Made by a program: the position numbers and the translations under genes. From a virus (taxonomy: Duplodnaviria; Heunggongvirae; Uroviricota; Caudoviricetes), in the IMG/VR virus record IMGVR_UViG_2690316166_000010: a stretch of 7,009 nucleotides of DNA; one strand, written 5' to 3'. The notes beneath the pieces are model-generated. The model was not told where the DNA came from, did no database searches, and was given only the letters and a program-made list of their open reading frames with translations. Numbering within the stretch: the first letter of the stretch is position 1; every line of letters starts with the position of its first letter. Below, one piece after another: positions 1,535 to 7,009 of the stretch.

Positions 1535-2089
1535 TCAGCCAACAAATTTAGCAACAAATACAGCAACCGCCGCTGTGAAAATGGTTGTGCACACTGGCAC
1601 AATAATGCCACTCCAACGCCACTTCGTATTATCATCAACCTTGTCAAACCGCCGATTCATCTCATCCATAATCTTGTCAAAGCGTTTATCCATCGCTTCG
1701 GTAAGCTCACCCTTCAGGCTGTTAATGTCTGATTTGAGCTGCTCTTTCAGGTTAGCTGTATCAGATTTAAGCTCACCTTTCAGATTCGCAATATCGCATT
1801 CAAGATCACCTTTCAGATGTGCTATGTCTGCTTTGAGTTCACCTTTCACCTCACCAACATCGGCTTTAGTTGAGAGGTTTGTAGTGCGTTCAGCAAGCGT
1901 CGCAAGGTCGTTTCTTGTTAGCGATAAATCACCTTCGAGCCGCTCAATTCGCCTTTCAAGTTTATCTGACATTCCGCCTCCACTACTGCCGCCATCGCCA
2001 CCATGATAAAGCACATCACGCTCAGAATGCGACACACTACCTGCTGAATTACCGAAAAGATTTCTTGCTACATTACCCATTATCACCAT
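1535..2089 (-). CDS. Tail-anchored coiled-coil protein with five 11-residue (hendecad) repeats and a C-terminal transmembrane helix; hypothetical prophage cargo protein
   Basis: ORF 1535..2089 (-). N-terminal Gly-rich stretch (GGDGGSSGGG), then consecutive 11-aa units (VKGELKADIAH / LKGDLECDIAN / LKGELKSDTAN / LKEQLKSDINS / LKGELTEAMDK), then C-terminal hydrophobic segment WSGIIVPVCTTIFTAAVAVFVAKFVG. A more likely start is ATG at complement of 1970..1972 (MSDKLERR...), preceded by GGAGG (complement of 1977..1981) with 4-nt spacer, giving 145 aa. Terminator downstream at 1399..1425. Confidence 0.65.
   Translation of the reverse strand: MVIMGNVARNLFGNSAGSVSHSERDVLYHGGDGGSSGGGMSDKLERRIERLEGDLSLTRNDLATLAERTTNLSTKADVGEVKGELKADIAHLKGDLECDIANLKGELKSDTANLKEQLKSDINSLKGELTEAMDKRFDKIMDEMNRRFDKVDDNTKWRWSGIIVPVCTTIFTAAVAVFVAKFVG
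1705..1869. repeat. Five imperfect tandem copies of a 33-bp unit inside the coiled-coil CDS
   Basis: Units at 1705..1737, 1738..1770, 1771..1803, 1804..1836 and 1837..1869 share a conserved core CTTTCAG(G/A)T and GATTT(G/A)A ends (e.g. GCTCACCTTTCAGATTCGCAATATCGCATTCAA). Each encodes one 11-residue protein repeat on the minus strand. Confidence 0.85.
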
Positions 2090-2333
2090 CCTGCGCTTTG
2101 TCTTTCTCCAACCACTTCAGCACCGCAGACGTACGATAAAGGCTCAGGTAACCACAATTCAGGCAATGCAGCGTGTAATAAGTTTTGCGCATATCAGGTA
2201 TGCTCTTAACATCACCCAAAAAAGCATAAGATACATAATGCTTTATGTTCTCTTTAATTAACTCACTCTGTTCCTCCAGGGGTAGATTGTTAAAATTTTC
2301 TGGTTTCTTATTTTTATCCCAGCAAAGATCCAT
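2073..2333 (-). CDS. Hypothetical protein, 86 aa if it starts at the visible ATG; the true 5' end may lie in the masked region
   Basis: Minus-strand reading frame open from the N-run down to stop TAA (complement of 2073..2075): MDLCWDKNKKPENFNNLPLEEQSELIKENIKHYVSYAFLGDVKSIPDMRKTYYTLHCLNCGYLSLYRTSAVLKWLEKDKAQDGDNG. AT-rich DNA. Its 3' end overlaps the 2089 start of the coiled-coil gene, suggesting an operon. No convincing Shine-Dalgarno at the visible ATG (2331..2333). Confidence 0.35.
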   Translation of the reverse strand: MDLCWDKNKKPENFNNLPLEEQSELIKENIKHYVSYAFLGDVKSIPDMRKTYYTLHCLNCGYLSLYRTSAVLKWLEKDKAQDGDNG

Positions 2334-3156
2334 ACTTTCTGGAACAGATAATCNNNNNNNNNNNNNNNNNNNNNNNNNNNNNNNNNNNNNNNNNNNNNNN
2401 NNNNNNNNNNNNNNNNNNNNNNNNNNNNNNNNNNNNNNNNNNNNNNNNNNNNNNNNNNNNNNNNNNNNNNNNNNNNNNNNNNNNNNNNNNNNNNNNNNNN
2501 NNNNNNNNNNNNNNNNNNNNNNNNNNNNNNNNNNNNNNNNNNNNNNNNNNNNNNNNNNNNNNNNNNNNNNNNNNNNNNNNNNNNNNNNNNNNNNNNNNNN
2601 NNNNNNNNNNNNNNNNNNNNNNNNNNNNNNNNNNNNNNNNNNNNNNNNNNNNNNNNNNNNNNNNNNNNNNNNNNNNNNNNNNNNNNNNNNNNNNNNNNNN
2701 NNNNNNNNNNNNNNNNNNNNNNNNNNNNNNNNNNNNNNNNNNNNNNNNNNNNNNNNNNNNNNNNNNNNNNNNNNNNNNNNNNNNNNNNNNNNNNNNNNNN
2801 NNNNNNNNNNNNNNNNNNNNNNNNNNNNNNNNNNNNNNNNNNNNNNNNNNNNNNNNNNNNNNNNNNNNNNNNNNNNNNNNNNNNNNNNNNNNNNNNNNNN
2901 NNNNNNNNNNNNNNNNNNNNNNNNNNNNNNNNNNNNNNNNNNNNNNNNNNNNNNNNNNNNNNNNNNNNNNNNNNNNNNNNNNNNNNNNNNNNNNNNNNNN
3001 NNNNNNNNNNNNNNNNNNNNNNNNNNNNNNNNNNNNNNNNNNNNNNNNNNNNNNNNNNNNNNNNNNNNNNNNNNNNNNNNNNNNNNNNNNNNNNNNNNNN
3101 NNNNNNNNNNNNNNNNNNNNNNNNNNNNNNNNNNNNNNNNNNNNNNNNNNNNNNNN

Positions 3157-3776
3157 ACACGGCGCTGCTCCAGTGCCGCTACCTCGCCCCATCGCGCCCC
3201 GGTCGACAGAAGGATTTCGACGGCCAGCCGTTCATCGGGATTTTCAGCCAGTGCATCCAGCAACTGAACACATTCAGACTTACTCAGATATCCCATTTCA
3301 CGCTCGTTAACCTTCATTCCTTTAAGGCCTTGAACGGGGTTATCGTTAAGAAAATGGCCGGATGAGATGAGTGCGGTAAACATCGCGCTTAACGCCCCAA
3401 TCTCTCGATTTATGGTGCTGGGCTGTATCCCCTGCTCTATCCTGGACACACGTAGCTCGGTGAGCATCGTTGTATTAAGTTTATGCACGCACGGGTCATC
3501 CATTGCCTCACTCAAGCGCAGCAATTTAAGGCGCGTGTTATGCCCTGACTTCATTAGCTGGCCGTGGTATTTCCACCACAAGTCAATAAGCACTGACAGC
3601 GGACGGCGATCAATGGAGTTTCCTTTCCACTCATTGTTATGCTGTTGCGCCAGCACCCACCGCTCATATAAAACTGCATCCGATTTCGTTTTAAATTTTT
3701 TGCGAATGCGTTTGCCTTTACGCCCCTCAGGACGCATGTCAAGAAGATACCCTCCCGGAATTGATTTTATGCTCAT
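3157..3776 (-). CDS. int: P2-like phage integrase (tyrosine recombinase), N-terminal ~206 codons visible; 3' end hidden in N-run 2354..3156
   Basis: From ATG at complement of 3774..3776 the frame reads MSIKSIPGGYLLDMRPEGRKGKRIRKKFKTKSDAVLYERWVLAQQHNNEW...LSTGARWGEVAALEQRR. This closely parallels the phage P2 integrase N-terminal region as I recall it (GRKGKRIRKKF, DDPC, QGIQPSTINRE, LSTGARWGE motifs). The 617-aa six-frame ORF is a chimera across the N-run. Confidence 0.85.
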
Positions 3777-3825
3777 TCGTGAAGCCCCAGCGTTACAAGA
3801 CCACCATGCCCCCAGCGTTCCATGA

Positions 3826-4137
3826 TTAGCCGGGCTGTGTGCCAGTCTTGCGGGATTTTTGAGAAGACGATGTGTTTTCTGGCCCATCAGGGGAGAGAGA
3901 AGGACTGATCTGCCCAGCAGCCTCATTTGTTTCGTTACTCATCAACCACGTAGTGTATTTTTTAAATTCCGGGTGCATTGTGATTTTCAGTAAAACCTCC
4001 GTTCCCACACCTCGAATACCAGTCTCGTATTGCTTAACCGTACCAACCGCAATACCTATTGAATCCGCGAACTTTGCCTGACTAAGCCCCTCAGATTCTC
4101 GAATTGCTTTTAGCTTCTTTGATATCTCTATTGACAT
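3826..4137 (-). CDS. C: P2 C-like immunity repressor (103 aa, helix-turn-helix)
   Basis: ATG at complement of 4135..4137, preceded by AGGTG (complement of 4144..4148). Product MSIEISKKLKAIRESEGLSQAKFADSIGIAVGTVKQYETGIRGVGTEVLLKITMHPEFKKYTTWLMSNETNEAAGQISPSLSPDGPENTSSSQKSRKTGTQPG resembles the P2 C repressor as I recall it (FTKYTLWFMTNQ...GQIAP...SGQKTG) in length and motifs. Position between int and a divergent cox-like gene fits. The six-frame ORF start at 4239 is an upstream extension. Confidence 0.8.
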   Translation of the reverse strand: MSIEISKKLKAIRESEGLSQAKFADSIGIAVGTVKQYETGIRGVGTEVLLKITMHPEFKKYTTWLMSNETNEAAGQISPSLSPDGPENTSSSQKSRKTGTQPG

Positions 4138-4232
4138 GGTGTGCACCTGAATACTATATTGGTTATCAGTTGAGTACCACTTGACGCTACAAAGAGCCAC
4201 AAATAGCACCAGATTGAATAGGTTATCACACC
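4138..4232. promoter_or_regulatory. Divergent switch region between the repressor and cox-like genes (candidate Pc/Pe promoters and operators)
   Basis: 95-bp intergenic region between divergently oriented repressor (start 4137, -) and cox-like gene (start 4233, +). Contains direct repeats TATTGGTTATCAG (4157..4169) and AATAGGTTATCAC (4217..4229) sharing the 8-mer GGTTATCA. TTGACG -35-like hexamer at 4181..4186 (+). TATAGT -10-like hexamer on the minus strand (complement of 4153..4158). Hexamer assignments are tentative. Confidence 0.55.
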
Positions 4233-4511
4233 ATGGCAAAAGTCCTTAACACATACGAACAAGCGGATTTTGAGCGTTTGGCGGCGTTCTACCCATACCG
4301 TAATGAACATGGGCTACCGGTACTTGAAGAAAGCCTAGAGGATTATGCGAAACGCACAAATCAAAGCATTCTCGCTGTAAGAAGGCAGGCTGATAGATCG
4401 GTAATTCCCGTTACTCAAGAAGGAAGAAACACAAAACGCAAAGTAAATCTCTTCGCAATTTTCCTGAAAACCATCAGAAACGCAGAGAAATACGTGCAGA
4501 TGACAAAATAA
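4233..4511 (+). CDS. cox: Cox/Apl-like excisionase and transcriptional regulator (92 aa)
   Basis: First gene of the rightward operon, divergent from the repressor as in P2 and 186. Product MAKVLNTYEQADFERLAAFYPYRNEHGLPVLEESLEDYAKRTNQSILAVRRQADRSVIPVTQEG... The segment YAKRTNQSILAVRRQADRSVIPV resembles the DNA-binding region of P2 Cox as I recall it (FAKLIGKSTGAVRRMIDKGKLPVI). Confidence 0.6.
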   Translation: MAKVLNTYEQADFERLAAFYPYRNEHGLPVLEESLEDYAKRTNQSILAVRRQADRSVIPVTQEGRNTKRKVNLFAIFLKTIRNAEKYVQMTK

Positions 4512-4525
4512 CGAGGTGTCATTTT

Positions 4526-5036
4526 ATGCTGAAGCAACGCCGTAATTTTTGTACCGGAACAGAACGCCACGCTAACCGTTTCACTACCAGTGCATCACGC
4601 AGCAACATCCGCTACAGCCTGAGTGATACACACGCAACGCCGGATGGCTACCCAGTAAAACAAATCGGCGAGCACGCCTGGCTGATTGAGAAAGCTGGAA
4701 TCGTGATCCACAAATGCCCACGCAATCCGTTTACCGGAAACCGCATTTTTGCACTGAGCTGTGGCGACAATCAGTTCGGGCAGGATTTCACATTATACGA
4801 AGCACTTCGCACGGTTGATCGTCTGCTTCGCGGGCAAAGTTTTATTAAACAGGCTGATNNNNNNNNNNNNNNNNNNNNNNNNNNNNNNNNNNNNNNNNNN
4901 NNNNNNNNNNNNNNNNNNNNNNNNNNNNNNNNNNNNNNNNNNNNNNNNNNNNNNNNNNNNNNNNNNNNNNNNNNNNCTTCGCACGGTTGATCGTCTGCTT
5001 CGCGGGCAAAGTTTTATTAAACAGGCTGATTTATAA
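4526..5036 (+). CDS. Hypothetical early-operon protein, interrupted by N-run 4859..4976; about 112 aa if the flanking 54-bp repeat is a gap artefact
   Basis: ATG 4526 preceded by GAGGTG about 8 nt upstream. Frame open to the N-run: MLKQRRNFCTGTERHANRFTTSASRSNIRYSLSDTHATPDGYPVKQIGEHAWLIEKAGIVIHKCPRNPFTGNRIFALSCGDNQFGQDFTLYEALRTVDRLLRGQSFIKQAD. The same final 18 codons recur after the gap, followed by L and stop TAA (5034..5036). Several Cys/His residues; no family recognised. Confidence 0.5.
4805..5030. repeat. Perfect 54-bp direct repeat flanking the 118-nt N-run
   Basis: 4805..4858 (CTTCGCACGGTTGATCGTCTGCTTCGCGGGCAAAGTTTTATTAAACAGGCTGAT) is identical to 4977..5030. The N-run lies exactly between the two copies. 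Confidence 0.9.
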
Positions 5037-5046
5037 CAGGTGCTTT

Positions 5047-5334
5047 ATGACCAAAGACAATGCACAAGGTGTATTTATCCGTTTTATTGATTTTCGCGGT
5101 GAACTGTTATTACGTGCATCCGCTATTGACGGAGTGACTCCGGCGGGTAAAAACGGAGCCGACGAAGCCACTTACGTTTATCTGAACGGCACGCGACTGC
5201 TTGTGGAACTTCCGTACCAGACCGTACGAGAAATCATCAGCGAAGATGAAAAGGCACGCCAGGTTAATGGCGATGAACCCTATATCGAAATTATTTGTAT
5301 GGATTCAGAAGCTGAAATACAGAAAGCAGATTAA
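5047..5334 (+). CDS. Hypothetical early-operon protein (95 aa)
   Basis: ATG 5047 preceded by AGGTG (5038..5042) with 4-nt spacer; stop TAA 5332..5334. Product MTKDNAQGVFIRFIDFRGELLLRASAIDGVTPAGKNGADEATYVYLNGTRLLVELPYQTVREIISEDEKARQVNGDEPYIEIICMDSEAEIQKAD. The six-frame ORF start at 4987 is an upstream extension. No family recognised. Confidence 0.6.
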   Translation: MTKDNAQGVFIRFIDFRGELLLRASAIDGVTPAGKNGADEATYVYLNGTRLLVELPYQTVREIISEDEKARQVNGDEPYIEIICMDSEAEIQKAD

Positions 5335-5345
5335 AGGGCGTTGTG

Positions 5346-5588
5346 ATGGGCAAAGAATATAAAACTCTCATTAACAAAGCACTTGAGCGTTTTTATTTTC
5401 GCTTAAGTGCATCAGGCGCTCATGCTGAACGTGCGGCCCGTGACTCATTGACCAGAGCAATCCGAAGTCTGTATGACGTGGCTTTTTACGCTGATGATCT
5501 GGATGCACTTAACGAACTTTCCGAGCTGATCTGTGCCGCAGAATGCGGGGAACATATTGAACCGTATAAGCTGGGAAATATCGCATGA
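5346..5588 (+). CDS. Hypothetical early-operon protein (80 aa; alternative GTG start at 5343)
   Basis: ATG 5346 with AGGG 7 nt upstream; stop TGA 5586..5588. Product MGKEYKTLINKALERFYFRLSASGAHAERAARDSLTRAIRSLYDVAFYADDLDALNELSELICAAECGEHIEPYKLGNIA. Same strand and close spacing as neighbouring genes. Confidence 0.55.
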   Translation: MGKEYKTLINKALERFYFRLSASGAHAERAARDSLTRAIRSLYDVAFYADDLDALNELSELICAAECGEHIEPYKLGNIA

Positions 5589-5698
5589 GTATATTTATTT
5601 CATGGCTTGTTCTGATTATTTCGGTGGTCTGCGCCATTGGGATTATGCGAATTATTAATTCAGTAAAAAAGATTGAACGCTTTTTCACTGAAGAATAA
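5585..5698 (+). CDS. Small hydrophobic single-pass membrane peptide (37 aa), absent from the supplied ORF track
   Basis: ATG 5585..5587 overlaps the upstream stop TGA 5586..5588 (ATGA coupling). Product MSIFISWLVLIISVVCAIGIMRIINSVKKIERFFTEE, stop TAA 5696..5698. One hydrophobic helix followed by a charged tail. Confidence 0.45.
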   Translation: MSIFISWLVLIISVVCAIGIMRIINSVKKIERFFTEE

Positions 5699-5784
5699 CC
5701 GCGCAAATAAGACCCCAGGTTAAATAAGAAAATGTGAAAACAATCCGCATTCGCGGAGGTATTCGCACACGCCAAGGAGGCGTA

Positions 5785-5988
5785 ATGGCAATTAAGCATT
5801 TTCCTGTCGTTCGTTTCACCTCCAGAGGACGTGAATACGAAGTTGACGAACGCCTGATTACCACAATCGACAAACACCGTTCAGAAAAGGATGCACATCA
5901 TATCTATCTCACTGACGGCACTTACTTCTGCGCCACCAACGTGGTGCAGGTGAATCTTATCAGACAGGTACAGGAGTCACGCAGATGA
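5785..5988 (+). CDS. Hypothetical early-operon protein (67 aa)
   Basis: Strong Shine-Dalgarno AAGGAGG (5774..5780) with 4-nt spacer before ATG 5785. Product MAIKHFPVVRFTSRGREYEVDERLITTIDKHRSEKDAHHIYLTDGTYFCATNVVQVNLIRQVQESRR. Stop TGA 5986..5988 overlaps the next start (ATGA). The six-frame ORF start at 5734 (GTG) is an upstream extension. Confidence 0.65.
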   Translation: MAIKHFPVVRFTSRGREYEVDERLITTIDKHRSEKDAHHIYLTDGTYFCATNVVQVNLIRQVQESRR

Positions 5989-6157
5989 CCATTCTGGACT
6001 ACATCGCTGCCAATCCGGGTTGTAGCAGTGGAGAAATCGCCGCAGCACTGAATACACCAACCACAACCATTAATGCGGAGCTACGCCGTCTCTGGCGCAG
6101 CGGTTTAGTCACAAGAAAAGAGCGCAAAACAGGCGGTCGCTTTTCTTATCAGGTAAA
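5985..6157 (+). CDS. Putative winged-helix DNA-binding protein, N-terminal 57 codons visible; 3' end hidden in N-run 6158..6405
   Basis: ATG 5985 with AGGAG (5972..5976) 8 nt upstream. Product MTILDYIAANPGCSSGEIAAALNTPTTTINAELRRLWRSGLVTRKERKTGGRFSYQV has the helix-turn-helix-wing pattern typical of MarR/winged-helix domains (pattern-based, not searched). Confidence 0.5.
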
Positions 6158-6431
6158 NNNNNNNNNNNNNNNNNNNNNNNNNNNNNNNNNNNNNNNNNNN
6201 NNNNNNNNNNNNNNNNNNNNNNNNNNNNNNNNNNNNNNNNNNNNNNNNNNNNNNNNNNNNNNNNNNNNNNNNNNNNNNNNNNNNNNNNNNNNNNNNNNNN
6301 NNNNNNNNNNNNNNNNNNNNNNNNNNNNNNNNNNNNNNNNNNNNNNNNNNNNNNNNNNNNNNNNNNNNNNNNNNNNNNNNNNNNNNNNNNNNNNNNNNNN
6401 NNNNNACATCTGTAACAAGAGGATTGCCGCA

Positions 6432-6797
6432 ATGATTCTCGCCAACGACTTTCTTGAATACCTGCTCAACACAGAGCGTGATCTTGCCGCTCGCGTGCGT
6501 GATCGTTATGACATGTACCTGAAATCCCTGCCTGTACCGCAGCTCGCTGACGGAAAGATTGTTATTGATGGTCGCTACATGATTGACAGCCACGAGGGAA
6601 ATTACAGGCTTTACCGCATTGAAGGTGGCACCCCGTCCGTTATTGGCATTTACCAGCGCCCATCCTCTGCAATCGTCGATGTGATTGCCGACAGCATCCG
6701 CATCACACATCGCCATGCCGACACAGAAGACACCGTGCTGGAAATTCAGCGGCTGGCTACAGTCTGCCGCGACACCCTGAATGGCATGACGAAGTAA
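6432..6797 (+). CDS. Hypothetical early-operon protein (121 aa), or the C-terminal part of the preceding gene if the masked region has no stop
   Basis: ATG 6432 preceded by AAGAGG (6417..6422) with 9-nt spacer; stop TAA 6795..6797. Product MILANDFLEYLLNTERDLAARVRDRYDMYLKSLPVPQLADGKIVIDGRYMIDSHEGNYRLYRIEGGTPSVIGIYQRPSSAIVDVIADSIRITHRHADTEDTVLEIQRLATVCRDTLNGMTK. Confidence 0.5.
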   Translation: MILANDFLEYLLNTERDLAARVRDRYDMYLKSLPVPQLADGKIVIDGRYMIDSHEGNYRLYRIEGGTPSVIGIYQRPSSAIVDVIADSIRITHRHADTEDTVLEIQRLATVCRDTLNGMTK

Positions 6798-6803
6798 ATC
6801 ACT

Positions 6804-7009
6804 ATGACGGCAGAGTACATCAGGGACTGGCAACAACCGCGCCACGCAGTGGGGCGTGAAGGAACGGGGATCCCCGCTCCTGAATCCGCGCTTTCCTCCT
6901 GGCTGGATGCCCACCGGGCAGAGAACGAGCGCCGCCAGGAAATGGCTGATGCGGCGTTCTCCGCCACGCCACTGGGCAACCTGATTAATAAAAGCCTGGA
7001 CGCACAGGA
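6804..7009 (+). CDS. Start of a probable phage replication initiation gene (P2 gene A-like), 68 codons; continues beyond the right edge
   Basis: ATG 6804, 6 nt after the previous stop, open to the window end: MTAEYIRDWQQPRHAVGREGTGIPAPESALSSWLDAHRAENERRQEMADAAFSATPLGNLINKSLDAQ. Sits where P2-family phages carry gene A. I tentatively recall a similar PREAVGRE motif near the N-terminus of P2 A. Absent from the ORF track because no stop is reached. Confidence 0.4.
   Translation, partial: MTAEYIRDWQQPRHAVGREGTGIPAPESALSSWLDAHRAENERRQEMADAAFSATPLGNLINKSLDAQ

Follow-up and report, generated by a model that had tools for sequence, protein, structure and literature searches.

The cox-gpA interval of a P88-like Escherichia coli prophage: probably a conserved early-operon core in its cargo-free form

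The viral record IMGVR_UViG_2690316166_000010, analysed here over its whole 7,009 nucleotides (nt; the window), contains the left end of a P2-family prophage that adjoins btuC in the Escherichia coli chromosome. We focus on the interval at 4526-6797, between the cox-like gene and the replication gene gpA, in which the early (Pe) lytic operon of a Xuanwuvirus prophage (P88-like, Peduoviridae) probably has its conserved core, here in a form free of accessory cargo. A preliminary description had placed a rightward, tightly packed array of six or seven small genes there, and this array is present, as are two ATGA overlaps, at 5585 (g3/g4) and 5985 (g5/g6). In unmasked twins of the prophage, the interval from cox to gpA comprises seven intact rightward genes (g1 to g6 and g8) and one pseudogene remnant. 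Two of the open reading frames (ORFs) listed at the time are artefacts.

Gene set and operon layout

Three runs of N interrupt the window, at 2354-3156, 4859-4976, and 6158-6405. Their lengths differ from those of the twin sequence that they replace (803 versus 580 and 248 versus 188; none of the three agrees). The gene set used here follows the RefSeq annotation of the corresponding locus in an unmasked twin, L001, from E. coli O26 RM8426, to which the window is 99.7-100% identical outside the N runs. The 118-N run at 4859-4976 is flanked by a duplicate of 54 bp (4805-4858, the same as 4977-5030) that is present as a single copy in genomes 99.7-100% identical to the window; together, duplicate and N run split the DUF4761 gene g1 and look like an artefact of a scaffold gap or of masking. 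As the alignment to L001 indicates, the ORFs of 154 amino acids (aa) at 4526-4990 and of 270 aa at 5985-6797 are read-through artefacts. The first corresponds in the twins to a 112-aa DUF4761 gene, and the second to an 81-aa winged helix-turn-helix (wHTH) gene, a remnant of an ash/derepression pseudogene, and a 121-aa gene (6432-6797). A 617-aa 'integrase' ORF at 2073-3926 is a further fusion across an N run.

Third codon positions are the most variable ones in all seven genes, and internal stops are absent (17-87 loci per gene). The pooled ratio of nonsynonymous to synonymous polymorphism (pN/pS) is 0.21 for g1, 0.32 for g2, 0.08 for g3 (a value flattered by sampling, since loci were picked as best g3 matches), 0.28 for g4, 0.16 for g5, 0.21 for g6, and 0.28 for g8, compared with 0.19 for cox and 0.17 for the first 900 nt of gpA. 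The excess of third-position changes and these ratios of 0.08-0.32 show that all seven are real coding genes under purifying selection.

The spacers of the array are 14, 10, 11, -4, 86, -4, and 6 nt. Ribosome-binding sites are plausible for most genes and weak for gpA and for g4 and g6, both of which overlap their predecessor; the strongest Shine-Dalgarno sequence of the operon belongs to g5 (AAGGAGG). Upstream lies a candidate Pe-like promoter that extends into the start of the C-type repressor gene, which is read leftward; the position of the promoter mirrors that of P2 Pe (Table 1). The first gene of the operon, besides its strong PHROG assignment, weakly matches phrog_575 (Cox-like excisionase) and aligns to P2 Cox by BLASTP with an E-value of 3e-4. 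Within the operon, a search for repeats as candidate operator sites of g6 brought up none that was convincing.

A conserved core with two variable slots

When positions 4200-7009 were used as a megablast query, 1,410 of 5,426 complete E. coli genomes (about a quarter) showed matches, and at least 80% of the query was covered in 64 of them, the best matches (20 or more complete genomes) being 99.4-99.9% identical. The phage records that matched were Xuanwuvirus P88_4B11, phage P88, phage 520873, and Citrobacter phage phiSM, all of them Peduoviridae of the genus Xuanwuvirus. These four have the genes of the window in equal order, with 74-100% protein identity, which makes the window a member of their set, even if its immunity region (the C and cox alleles) is unlike that of P88.

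We compared 87 loci, namely 80 from IMG/VR, six related phage or genome loci, and the twin. The genes g1, g2, g3, and g4 are contiguous in all 87, the order of the core genes is fixed, and variation is limited to two places: slot A, between the 37-aa g4 and the 67-aa g5, and slot B, between the wHTH gene g6 and the 121-aa g8. Slot A is empty (88-100 bp, in tblastn coordinates) in 47 loci and measures 355-845 bp in the other 40, where it holds a gene of approximately 136 or 105 aa that belongs to no family. In 9 of 57 loci, a 144-bp remnant is all that slot B contains; otherwise, the slot spans 0.8-2.0 kb, with various combinations of an Ead/Ea22-like gene, a 67-aa membrane protein with a 276-aa Band_7/SPFH lipoprotein, a 183-aa HTH protein, the RNAs isrK and C4, and a 76-aa derepression-family gene. 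P88 itself carries in slot B the Ead/Ea22-like gene, the membrane protein, the Band_7/SPFH lipoprotein, both RNAs, and the derepression-family gene.

Compared with these relatives, the window represents a minimal form. Slot A is empty, and slot B has the 144-bp remnant form in the twins and is masked by N in the window. The end of g6 needs 73 nt more, so that the N run at 6158-6405 leaves at most approximately 175 nt, which is too short for isrK, C4, and a derepression gene. This run would hide the last 24 codons of g6 and a remnant of approximately 115-175 nt, whereas the run at 4859-4976 would hide nothing. Rfam searches of the window and of L001 gave no matches. The preliminary description had called this interval variable in P2-family phages, which is true of the cargo found in relatives, but the genes present here are the invariant core, with both slots empty.

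The core can be followed further, since g1, g3, g4, g5, and g8 remain recognisable, in the same order, down to approximately 45% identity. In L170, where the g3 protein is 45% identical, the DUF4761 protein is 59%, the membrane peptide 73%, a g5-like protein 34%, and a g8-like protein 22% identical, and the order upstream of gpA is kept. The position of g2 is taken there by a non-homologous gene of 84 aa, and other cargo lies further to the right.

In slot B of relatives, a 205-aa ORF, annotated as 'Ash family' or 'transcriptional regulator', lies over the Rfam matches for isrK (64 bits) and C4 (83 and 80 bits), located at 3363-3437 and 3473-3560 in L004 and at 5028-5102 and 5138-5225 in phage P88 (L007); the 76-aa derepression-family (PF25738) gene that follows is read in a different frame. 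The Ash ORF has probably been over-called at the site of an antirepressor cassette under RNA control, and the deletion of this cassette in the prophage type of the window may affect inducibility. The Band_7/SPFH lipoprotein (108 bits, with weak similarity to HflK/HflC) and its 67-aa partner occur at 3884-4914 in L007 and also in L052 and L056; neither gave a PADLOC match.

Products of g1 to g6

The genes of the array had initially been described as unrecognised, which is too strong for four of them, g1 (DUF4761), g3 (DUF4754), g6 (wHTH), and g8 (DUF5405-like), and remains right in that their functions are uncharacterised. Six of the seven genes (all except g4) belong to PHROG families, each of 'unknown function' apart from that of g6, and g2, g4, g5, and g8 have no significant Pfam match. 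Searches of NCBIfam and PADLOC returned no functional matches, the PADLOC results being a generic wHTH for g6 and one 11-bit match for g3, and the Foldseek matches in BFVD were uncharacterised phage proteins throughout. We found no papers on DUF4761, DUF4754, or the RefSeq protein accessions. In the databases, the families of the array are narrow and of enterobacterial origin. The interval is thus as poorly characterised as had been stated, with no literature on its two DUF families and no functional family or significant fold match, and its products do not each turn out to be homologues of characterised replication or regulatory proteins.

The g1 product matches Pfam DUF4761 (PF15958) with 225.4 bits (cutoff 27), its residues 8-112 covering the whole profile (1-105 of 105). 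It is basic (isoelectric point, pI, of 9.7), and its AlphaFold2 model, built on a shallow alignment, has a predicted local distance difference test score (pLDDT) of 71.5, with a disordered basic N-terminus of 30 residues, five strands, and a C-terminal helix. The best 120 of its 154 database clusters are all at least 67% identical. Senquatrovirus SEN4/SEN5 and Enterobacter phage phiT5282H share the folded core of DUF4761, which in SEN5 adjoins a gene for a Fil-like cell-division inhibitor. One product had been thought rich in Cys and His, which did not hold: no product exceeds 7.5% Cys plus His, the highest fractions being those of g5 (7.5%; one Cys and four His) and g1 (6.2%). A metal or zinc site in g1 was considered and rejected, as none of its three Cys is conserved among 27 homologues, which have R in place of Cys9, Y/G in place of Cys64, and S/N/R in place of Cys79.

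The least constrained core gene is g2, whose 105 database clusters reach down to 52% identity. It exists in two allele classes of 92 and 95 aa, 74-100% identical, beside an invariant g3. Its AlphaFold2 model (pLDDT 78.6, predicted template modelling score 0.69) shows five strands and a long helix, after which a sixth strand and a short terminal helix follow. Seven database variants of g2 (P0186, P0187, P0200, P0208, P0229, P0242, and P0244) enter the +1 frame at differing points and share a basic tail, ...KRHARLMAMNPISKLFVWIQKLKYRKQIKGRCDGQRI, that runs past the start of g3; the corresponding frame of the window is likewise open (5201-5362). Programmed frameshifting or dual coding at the 3' end of g2 was rejected, since the variant was found in 1 of 79 loci, and decay or sequencing variants are the most likely origin.

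The g3 product matches Pfam DUF4754 (PF15946) over its full length (181.7 bits, cutoff 27; residues 1-80 against profile positions 1-80 of 80). It is the product of the most constrained gene, 38 distinct DNA alleles encoding only three proteins. An exhaustive phmmer search of 1.84 billion representatives returned 21 proteins, the distant ones with 38-44% identity and lengths of 80-81 aa.

In g4, a hydrophobic stretch, IFISWLVLIISVVCAIGIM, can be read from the sequence, and the P88 counterpart is annotated as 'membrane protein'. The identity of the L170 peptide (3235-3360), next to a far less similar DUF4754 protein, is unusually strong conservation for such a tiny gene.

Parts resembling g5 and the wHTH of g6 are fused in phrog_19053. 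An in-frame GTG at 5734 would lengthen g5 to 84 aa (MKTIRIRGGI...; 5734-5784). The gene inserted in relatives whose slot A measures 355 bp begins with MKTIRIRGGI as well, so that slot-A cargo may use a conserved translation start at the beginning of the gap.

A winged-helix-like N-terminus had been noticed in the array and belongs to g6. The wHTH covers residues 2-52, all of them unmasked, and matches MarR_2 with 35.8 bits (cutoff 27) and HTH_24 with 34.1 bits (cutoff 21.9), whereas the score against the classic MarR model, 23.8 bits, lies just below the cutoff of 24.6; the PHROG family is phrog_1687. Full-length members of the MarR family have approximately 140-150 aa, their wHTH being enclosed by dimerisation helices at both termini. 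With 81 aa and a wHTH at residues 2-52, g6 is a stand-alone wHTH, and 'MarR family' describes its fold, not its architecture.

The g8 family and gpA

DUF5405 (PF17399) scores 119.5 bits for P2 Orf81 and 50 bits for P2 Orf83. A relative of g8 that is 72% identical (P0016) reaches 26.5 bits, above the cutoff, two other relatives obtain 17.7 and 18.4 bits, and BLASTP aligns g8 itself to P2 Orf81 with an E-value of 7e-4. By sequence comparison, g8 is probably related, if distantly, to P2 Orf81/Orf83 and has an additional, conserved N-terminal part of approximately 40 aa. Its 35 database clusters are all at least 64% identical, and a contig scan of genomes with g8 returned one locus.

Throughout the loci compared, a gene of the g8 family lies directly upstream of gpA, and the weak Shine-Dalgarno sequence of gpA follows the g8 stop at 6 nt. 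Where gpA is of an allele that is 83-91% identical, the 121-aa g8 is replaced by a protein of 129 aa, which aligns to it end to end (22% identity, E-value 2e-5) and is 29% identical to a 137-aa protein at the equivalent place in a distant relative. The loci with this pair are L010, L012, L013, L022, L028, L047-L049, L055, L060, L067, L071, L072, and L080, and further L084, L085, L088, and L089. The gpA protein is 31% identical to P2 A (E-value 1e-79) and 35% identical to 186 A. With 940 aa (L001 7373-10195), it is longer than the 761-aa protein of P2, and the alignment ends at approximately residue 744, leaving a C-terminal extension of approximately 190 residues.

Comparison with P2, 186, and P4

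The early operon of P2 (cox, orf78, B, orf80, orf81, orf82, orf83, A) resembles that of the window in its convergent-switch layout, its C-type repressor, its first gene, cox, and a series of small genes whose last member, of DUF5405 type in P2 and probably so here, directly precedes A (31%); in P2, orf83 overlaps the start of A. In contrast, the window has no homologues of P2 orf78, B, orf80 (DUF2732), and orf82 (TraR/DksA zinc finger), and P2 has none of DUF4761, DUF4754, the membrane peptide, and the wHTH gene.

The early operon of 186 (apl, cII, fil, dhr, CP80-CP84, A) is similar in that gpB is absent and in that a left block of small genes, which in 186 have regulatory or host-directed roles, is followed by a gap and a right block. 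In 186, the gap contains a terminator, the genes of the right block are non-essential, and the DUF5405 gene, CP83, lies two genes before A. Unlike 186, the window has no plus-strand terminator-like site in its 86-bp gap (5699-5784) and no exonuclease or PAPS-reductase-like genes. Hooper and Egan reportedly described, in 1981, a dependence of 186 on host dnaC.

The third system is the antirepressor control of the P4 epsilon/P1 c4 type, to which slot B of the relatives corresponds, with isrK, C4, and the PF25738 gene. This cassette is deleted in the prophage type of the window, and its last part alone survives in the twins.

The absence of a P2 B-type gene, already noticed in the preliminary description, was borne out by BLASTP, tblastn, and hhalign. 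None of the operon products is a gpB homologue by BLASTP, in which only g3 aligned (E-value 0.003 in a set of 21 sequences). A tblastn search with gpB (166 aa) against 50,697 phage records matched 76 of them, with at least 85% identity and all of the P2-genus type, and none of the Xuanwuviruses; the annotation of the 186 early region is likewise without B, and a scan of viral contigs with gpB returned only copies at least 99% identical. Going by these searches, Peduoviridae outside the genus of P2 generally lack gpB, and its absence here is no anomaly.

Neighbouring features

The coordinates of the operon and of its surroundings are given in Table 1. From the left end of the prophage, the order is a DUF1640 coiled-coil gene, a partly masked gene, the integrase, the C-type repressor, and the cox-like gene. 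The space between btuC and the integrase is occupied by the DUF1640 gene and another of 166 aa (1535-2353 on the minus strand; L001 2559-3597), and for these left-edge prophage genes Pfam and PADLOC gave weak matches of coiled-coil type only. Beyond the window, ParM-like and plasmid-partition-family genes directly follow gpA in the twin (L001 10272-11547), and two 42-nt direct repeats with hairpins are found at 10129-10243 of L001.

Table 1 Features of the window, with emphasis on the interval from cox to gpA
Feature	Position	Strand	Remarks
btuE' (partial), then btuC	362-1342	- (btuC)	E. coli chromosomal DNA, left part of the window
C-type repressor gene	3826-4137	leftward	40% identity to P2 C
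Candidate Pe-like early promoter (TTGACA, 18-nt spacer, TATATT)	4131-4160	+	sigma-70 consensus match, 11/12 (L001 4932-4961)
cox-like gene, first of the operon, 92 aa	4233-4511	+	phrog_11533, E-value 4e-53
g1, DUF4761, 112 aa	4526-4858 (codons 1-111); 5031-5036 (last codon and stop)	+	interrupted by N run
g2, acidic protein, 95 aa, pI 4.4	5047-5334	+	phrog_3800
g3, DUF4754, 80 aa	5346-5588	+	Pfam PF15946
g4, single-pass membrane peptide, 37 aa	5585-5698	+	ATG overlaps g3 stop (ATGA at 5585)
Slot A, empty form, 86-bp gap	5699-5784	+	occupied in relatives
g5, 67 aa	5785-5988	+	phrog_3459
g6, winged-helix protein, 81 aa, first 57 residues visible	5985-6157	+	ATG overlaps g5 stop (ATGA at 5985)
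N run	6158-6405		hides end of g6 and slot B; in twins, 144-bp isrK/C4/derepression remnant annotated as 'ash family' pseudogene
g8, 121 aa	6432-6797	+	phrog_3237; stop 6 nt before gpA start
gpA start, rolling-circle replication endonuclease	6804-7009	+	940 aa in twins

Discussion

The fixed order of the core across the loci and its resemblance to the early operons of P2 and 186 are consistent with the interval being the core of the early operon of a P88-like phage, as proposed above. Behind cox, it would consist of a fixed left block of four genes, a gap, the pair g5/g6, one member of which encodes a DNA-binding protein, and the pair g8-gpA. In the absence of the C-type repressor, transcription would yield a single message of the array, with coupled translation of its genes. 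The g6 protein, possibly with its coupled partner g5, would act as a regulator by binding DNA, a DNA-binding role being quite likely given its wHTH. The left block, g1-g4, is placed like cII-fil-dhr of 186 and orf78-B of P2 and might supply early regulatory or host-takeover functions, with g4 located at the inner membrane, a proposal that we put forward tentatively. Replication would rely on gpA and, with reasonable probability, on the helicase loader of the host, as in 186; the host loader is proposed because no gpB-type loader is present. Finally, translation of g8 would bring ribosomes to the weakly signalled start of gpA, and g8 may also act together with gpA, an idea to which we give even chances. 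According to the 186 record, translation to the end of orf84 appears to be needed for the translation of A.

Several observations weigh against this interpretation. Part of g6 and the whole of slot B are hidden by N in the window, and the promoter is a consensus match only, two such matches having been found in the region compared with 3.4 expected from shuffles. Sequence and profile searches of the PDB were empty for g1, g2, g3, g5, g6, and g8, and no product except the wHTH protein g6 received a functional assignment. The analogy of g1-g4 with cII/fil/dhr/B is positional, and BLASTP showed no similarity of g1-g5 to cII, fil, and dhr of 186. For the right end, the g8 of the window scores 13.9 bits against DUF5405, below the cutoff of 21.6, the hhalign comparison of the g8 family with Orf83/CP83 gave a probability of 48% (75 columns, E-value 1.8e-4), and the co-variation of g8 and gpA alleles could be explained by mere physical linkage. 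An RNA structure hiding the gpA start was also considered and rejected: shuffled sequences fold as stably as the RNA around the junction of g8 and gpA (z = -0.41), so that coupling of g8 and gpA is suggested by the spacing and the 186 precedent only.

Other explanations of the array were weighed against this conserved early-operon core. The preliminary description had suggested anti-defence or host-modulating genes on the basis of position, and one or more of the small products could be such an accessory factor, the best candidates being the acidic g2 and the membrane peptide g4. The small, acidic g2 has the highest pN/pS of the set, shows distinct allele classes beside g3, and is exchanged for an unrelated protein in L170; moreover, the operon is early, the interval takes up accessory cargo in relatives, and the DUF4761 core of SEN5 neighbours a Fil-like gene. 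Yet selection is purifying, not diversifying, in all of the genes, g1, g3, and g4 are fixed in all of the compared loci, no PADLOC match beyond generic ones and no PDB sequence match was obtained, and the PHROG families matched lie outside the host-takeover category. Furthermore, P2-like phages have their documented defence hotspot outside this interval, between gpA and gpQ (PMC9122126). For the genes of the window, the suggestion of an anti-defence locus was thus not sustained, and an accessory role of this kind is unlikely.

A much less probable explanation is that the DUF4754 protein g3 is a cryptic, shortened counterpart of gpB and a DnaB-helicase-loading factor. P2 B, a protein required in lagging-strand synthesis, is described as binding DnaB (Odegrip et al. 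2000, as cited in PMC11087808). Residues 8-52 of g3 align to gpB residues 115-155 by BLASTP with 29% identity and a common RD-L-RA-R-L motif (E-value 3e-4 as a single comparison), and strong constraint, as seen in g3, is expected for the partner of a conserved host protein. However, the E-value becomes approximately 0.06 once corrected for some 210 pairwise comparisons, g3 has half the length of gpB, and a seven-member DUF4754 profile, with members down to 38% identity, compared with gpB by hhalign gave a probability of 0.24% (E-value 0.25, 12 columns). The exhaustive phmmer search contained no gpB-like protein either, and g3 was rejected as a gpB relative, the pairwise match having failed both the profile test and this search.

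Least credible of all is the view that the ORFs are chance frames or decayed prophage remnants, for which the two N-run artefacts, the true pseudogene remnant, and the rare frameshifted g2 variants might speak, but which is refuted by the substitution pattern and the lack of internal stops, and is further opposed by plausible ribosome-binding sites, Pfam and PHROG families, synteny at 22-73% identity, and the viability and inducibility of P88 and its relatives (PMC5285337).

Going beyond the conserved early-operon core itself, DUF4761, g2, DUF4754, and the membrane peptide could form an undescribed host-takeover module of P88-like phages, with the g8 family as a specificity partner of gpA, which we regard as a speculative and rather improbable extension. 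The block keeps its order from 100% to approximately 45% identity, with the membrane peptide (73%) as its best-conserved member. One or more of its products would inhibit a conserved target in the host, for example cell division, FtsH-type membrane proteolysis, or an immune system, with g4 and the exchangeable acidic g2 as candidates.

The operon is already catalogued, in Pfam DUF and PHROG families and in the genus Xuanwuvirus of the International Committee on Taxonomy of Viruses, and it is widespread, so that its importance is limited. The practical gains are that the long ORFs are recognised as masking artefacts, that the absence of gpB is seen to be normal outside the genus of P2, and that the variable slots are mapped and found to be empty here. 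The P88 lysogen is genetically tractable and can be induced with mitomycin (PMC5285337), and the minimal form of the operon offers the cleanest background for assigning functions to DUF4761, DUF4754, and the 37-aa peptide.

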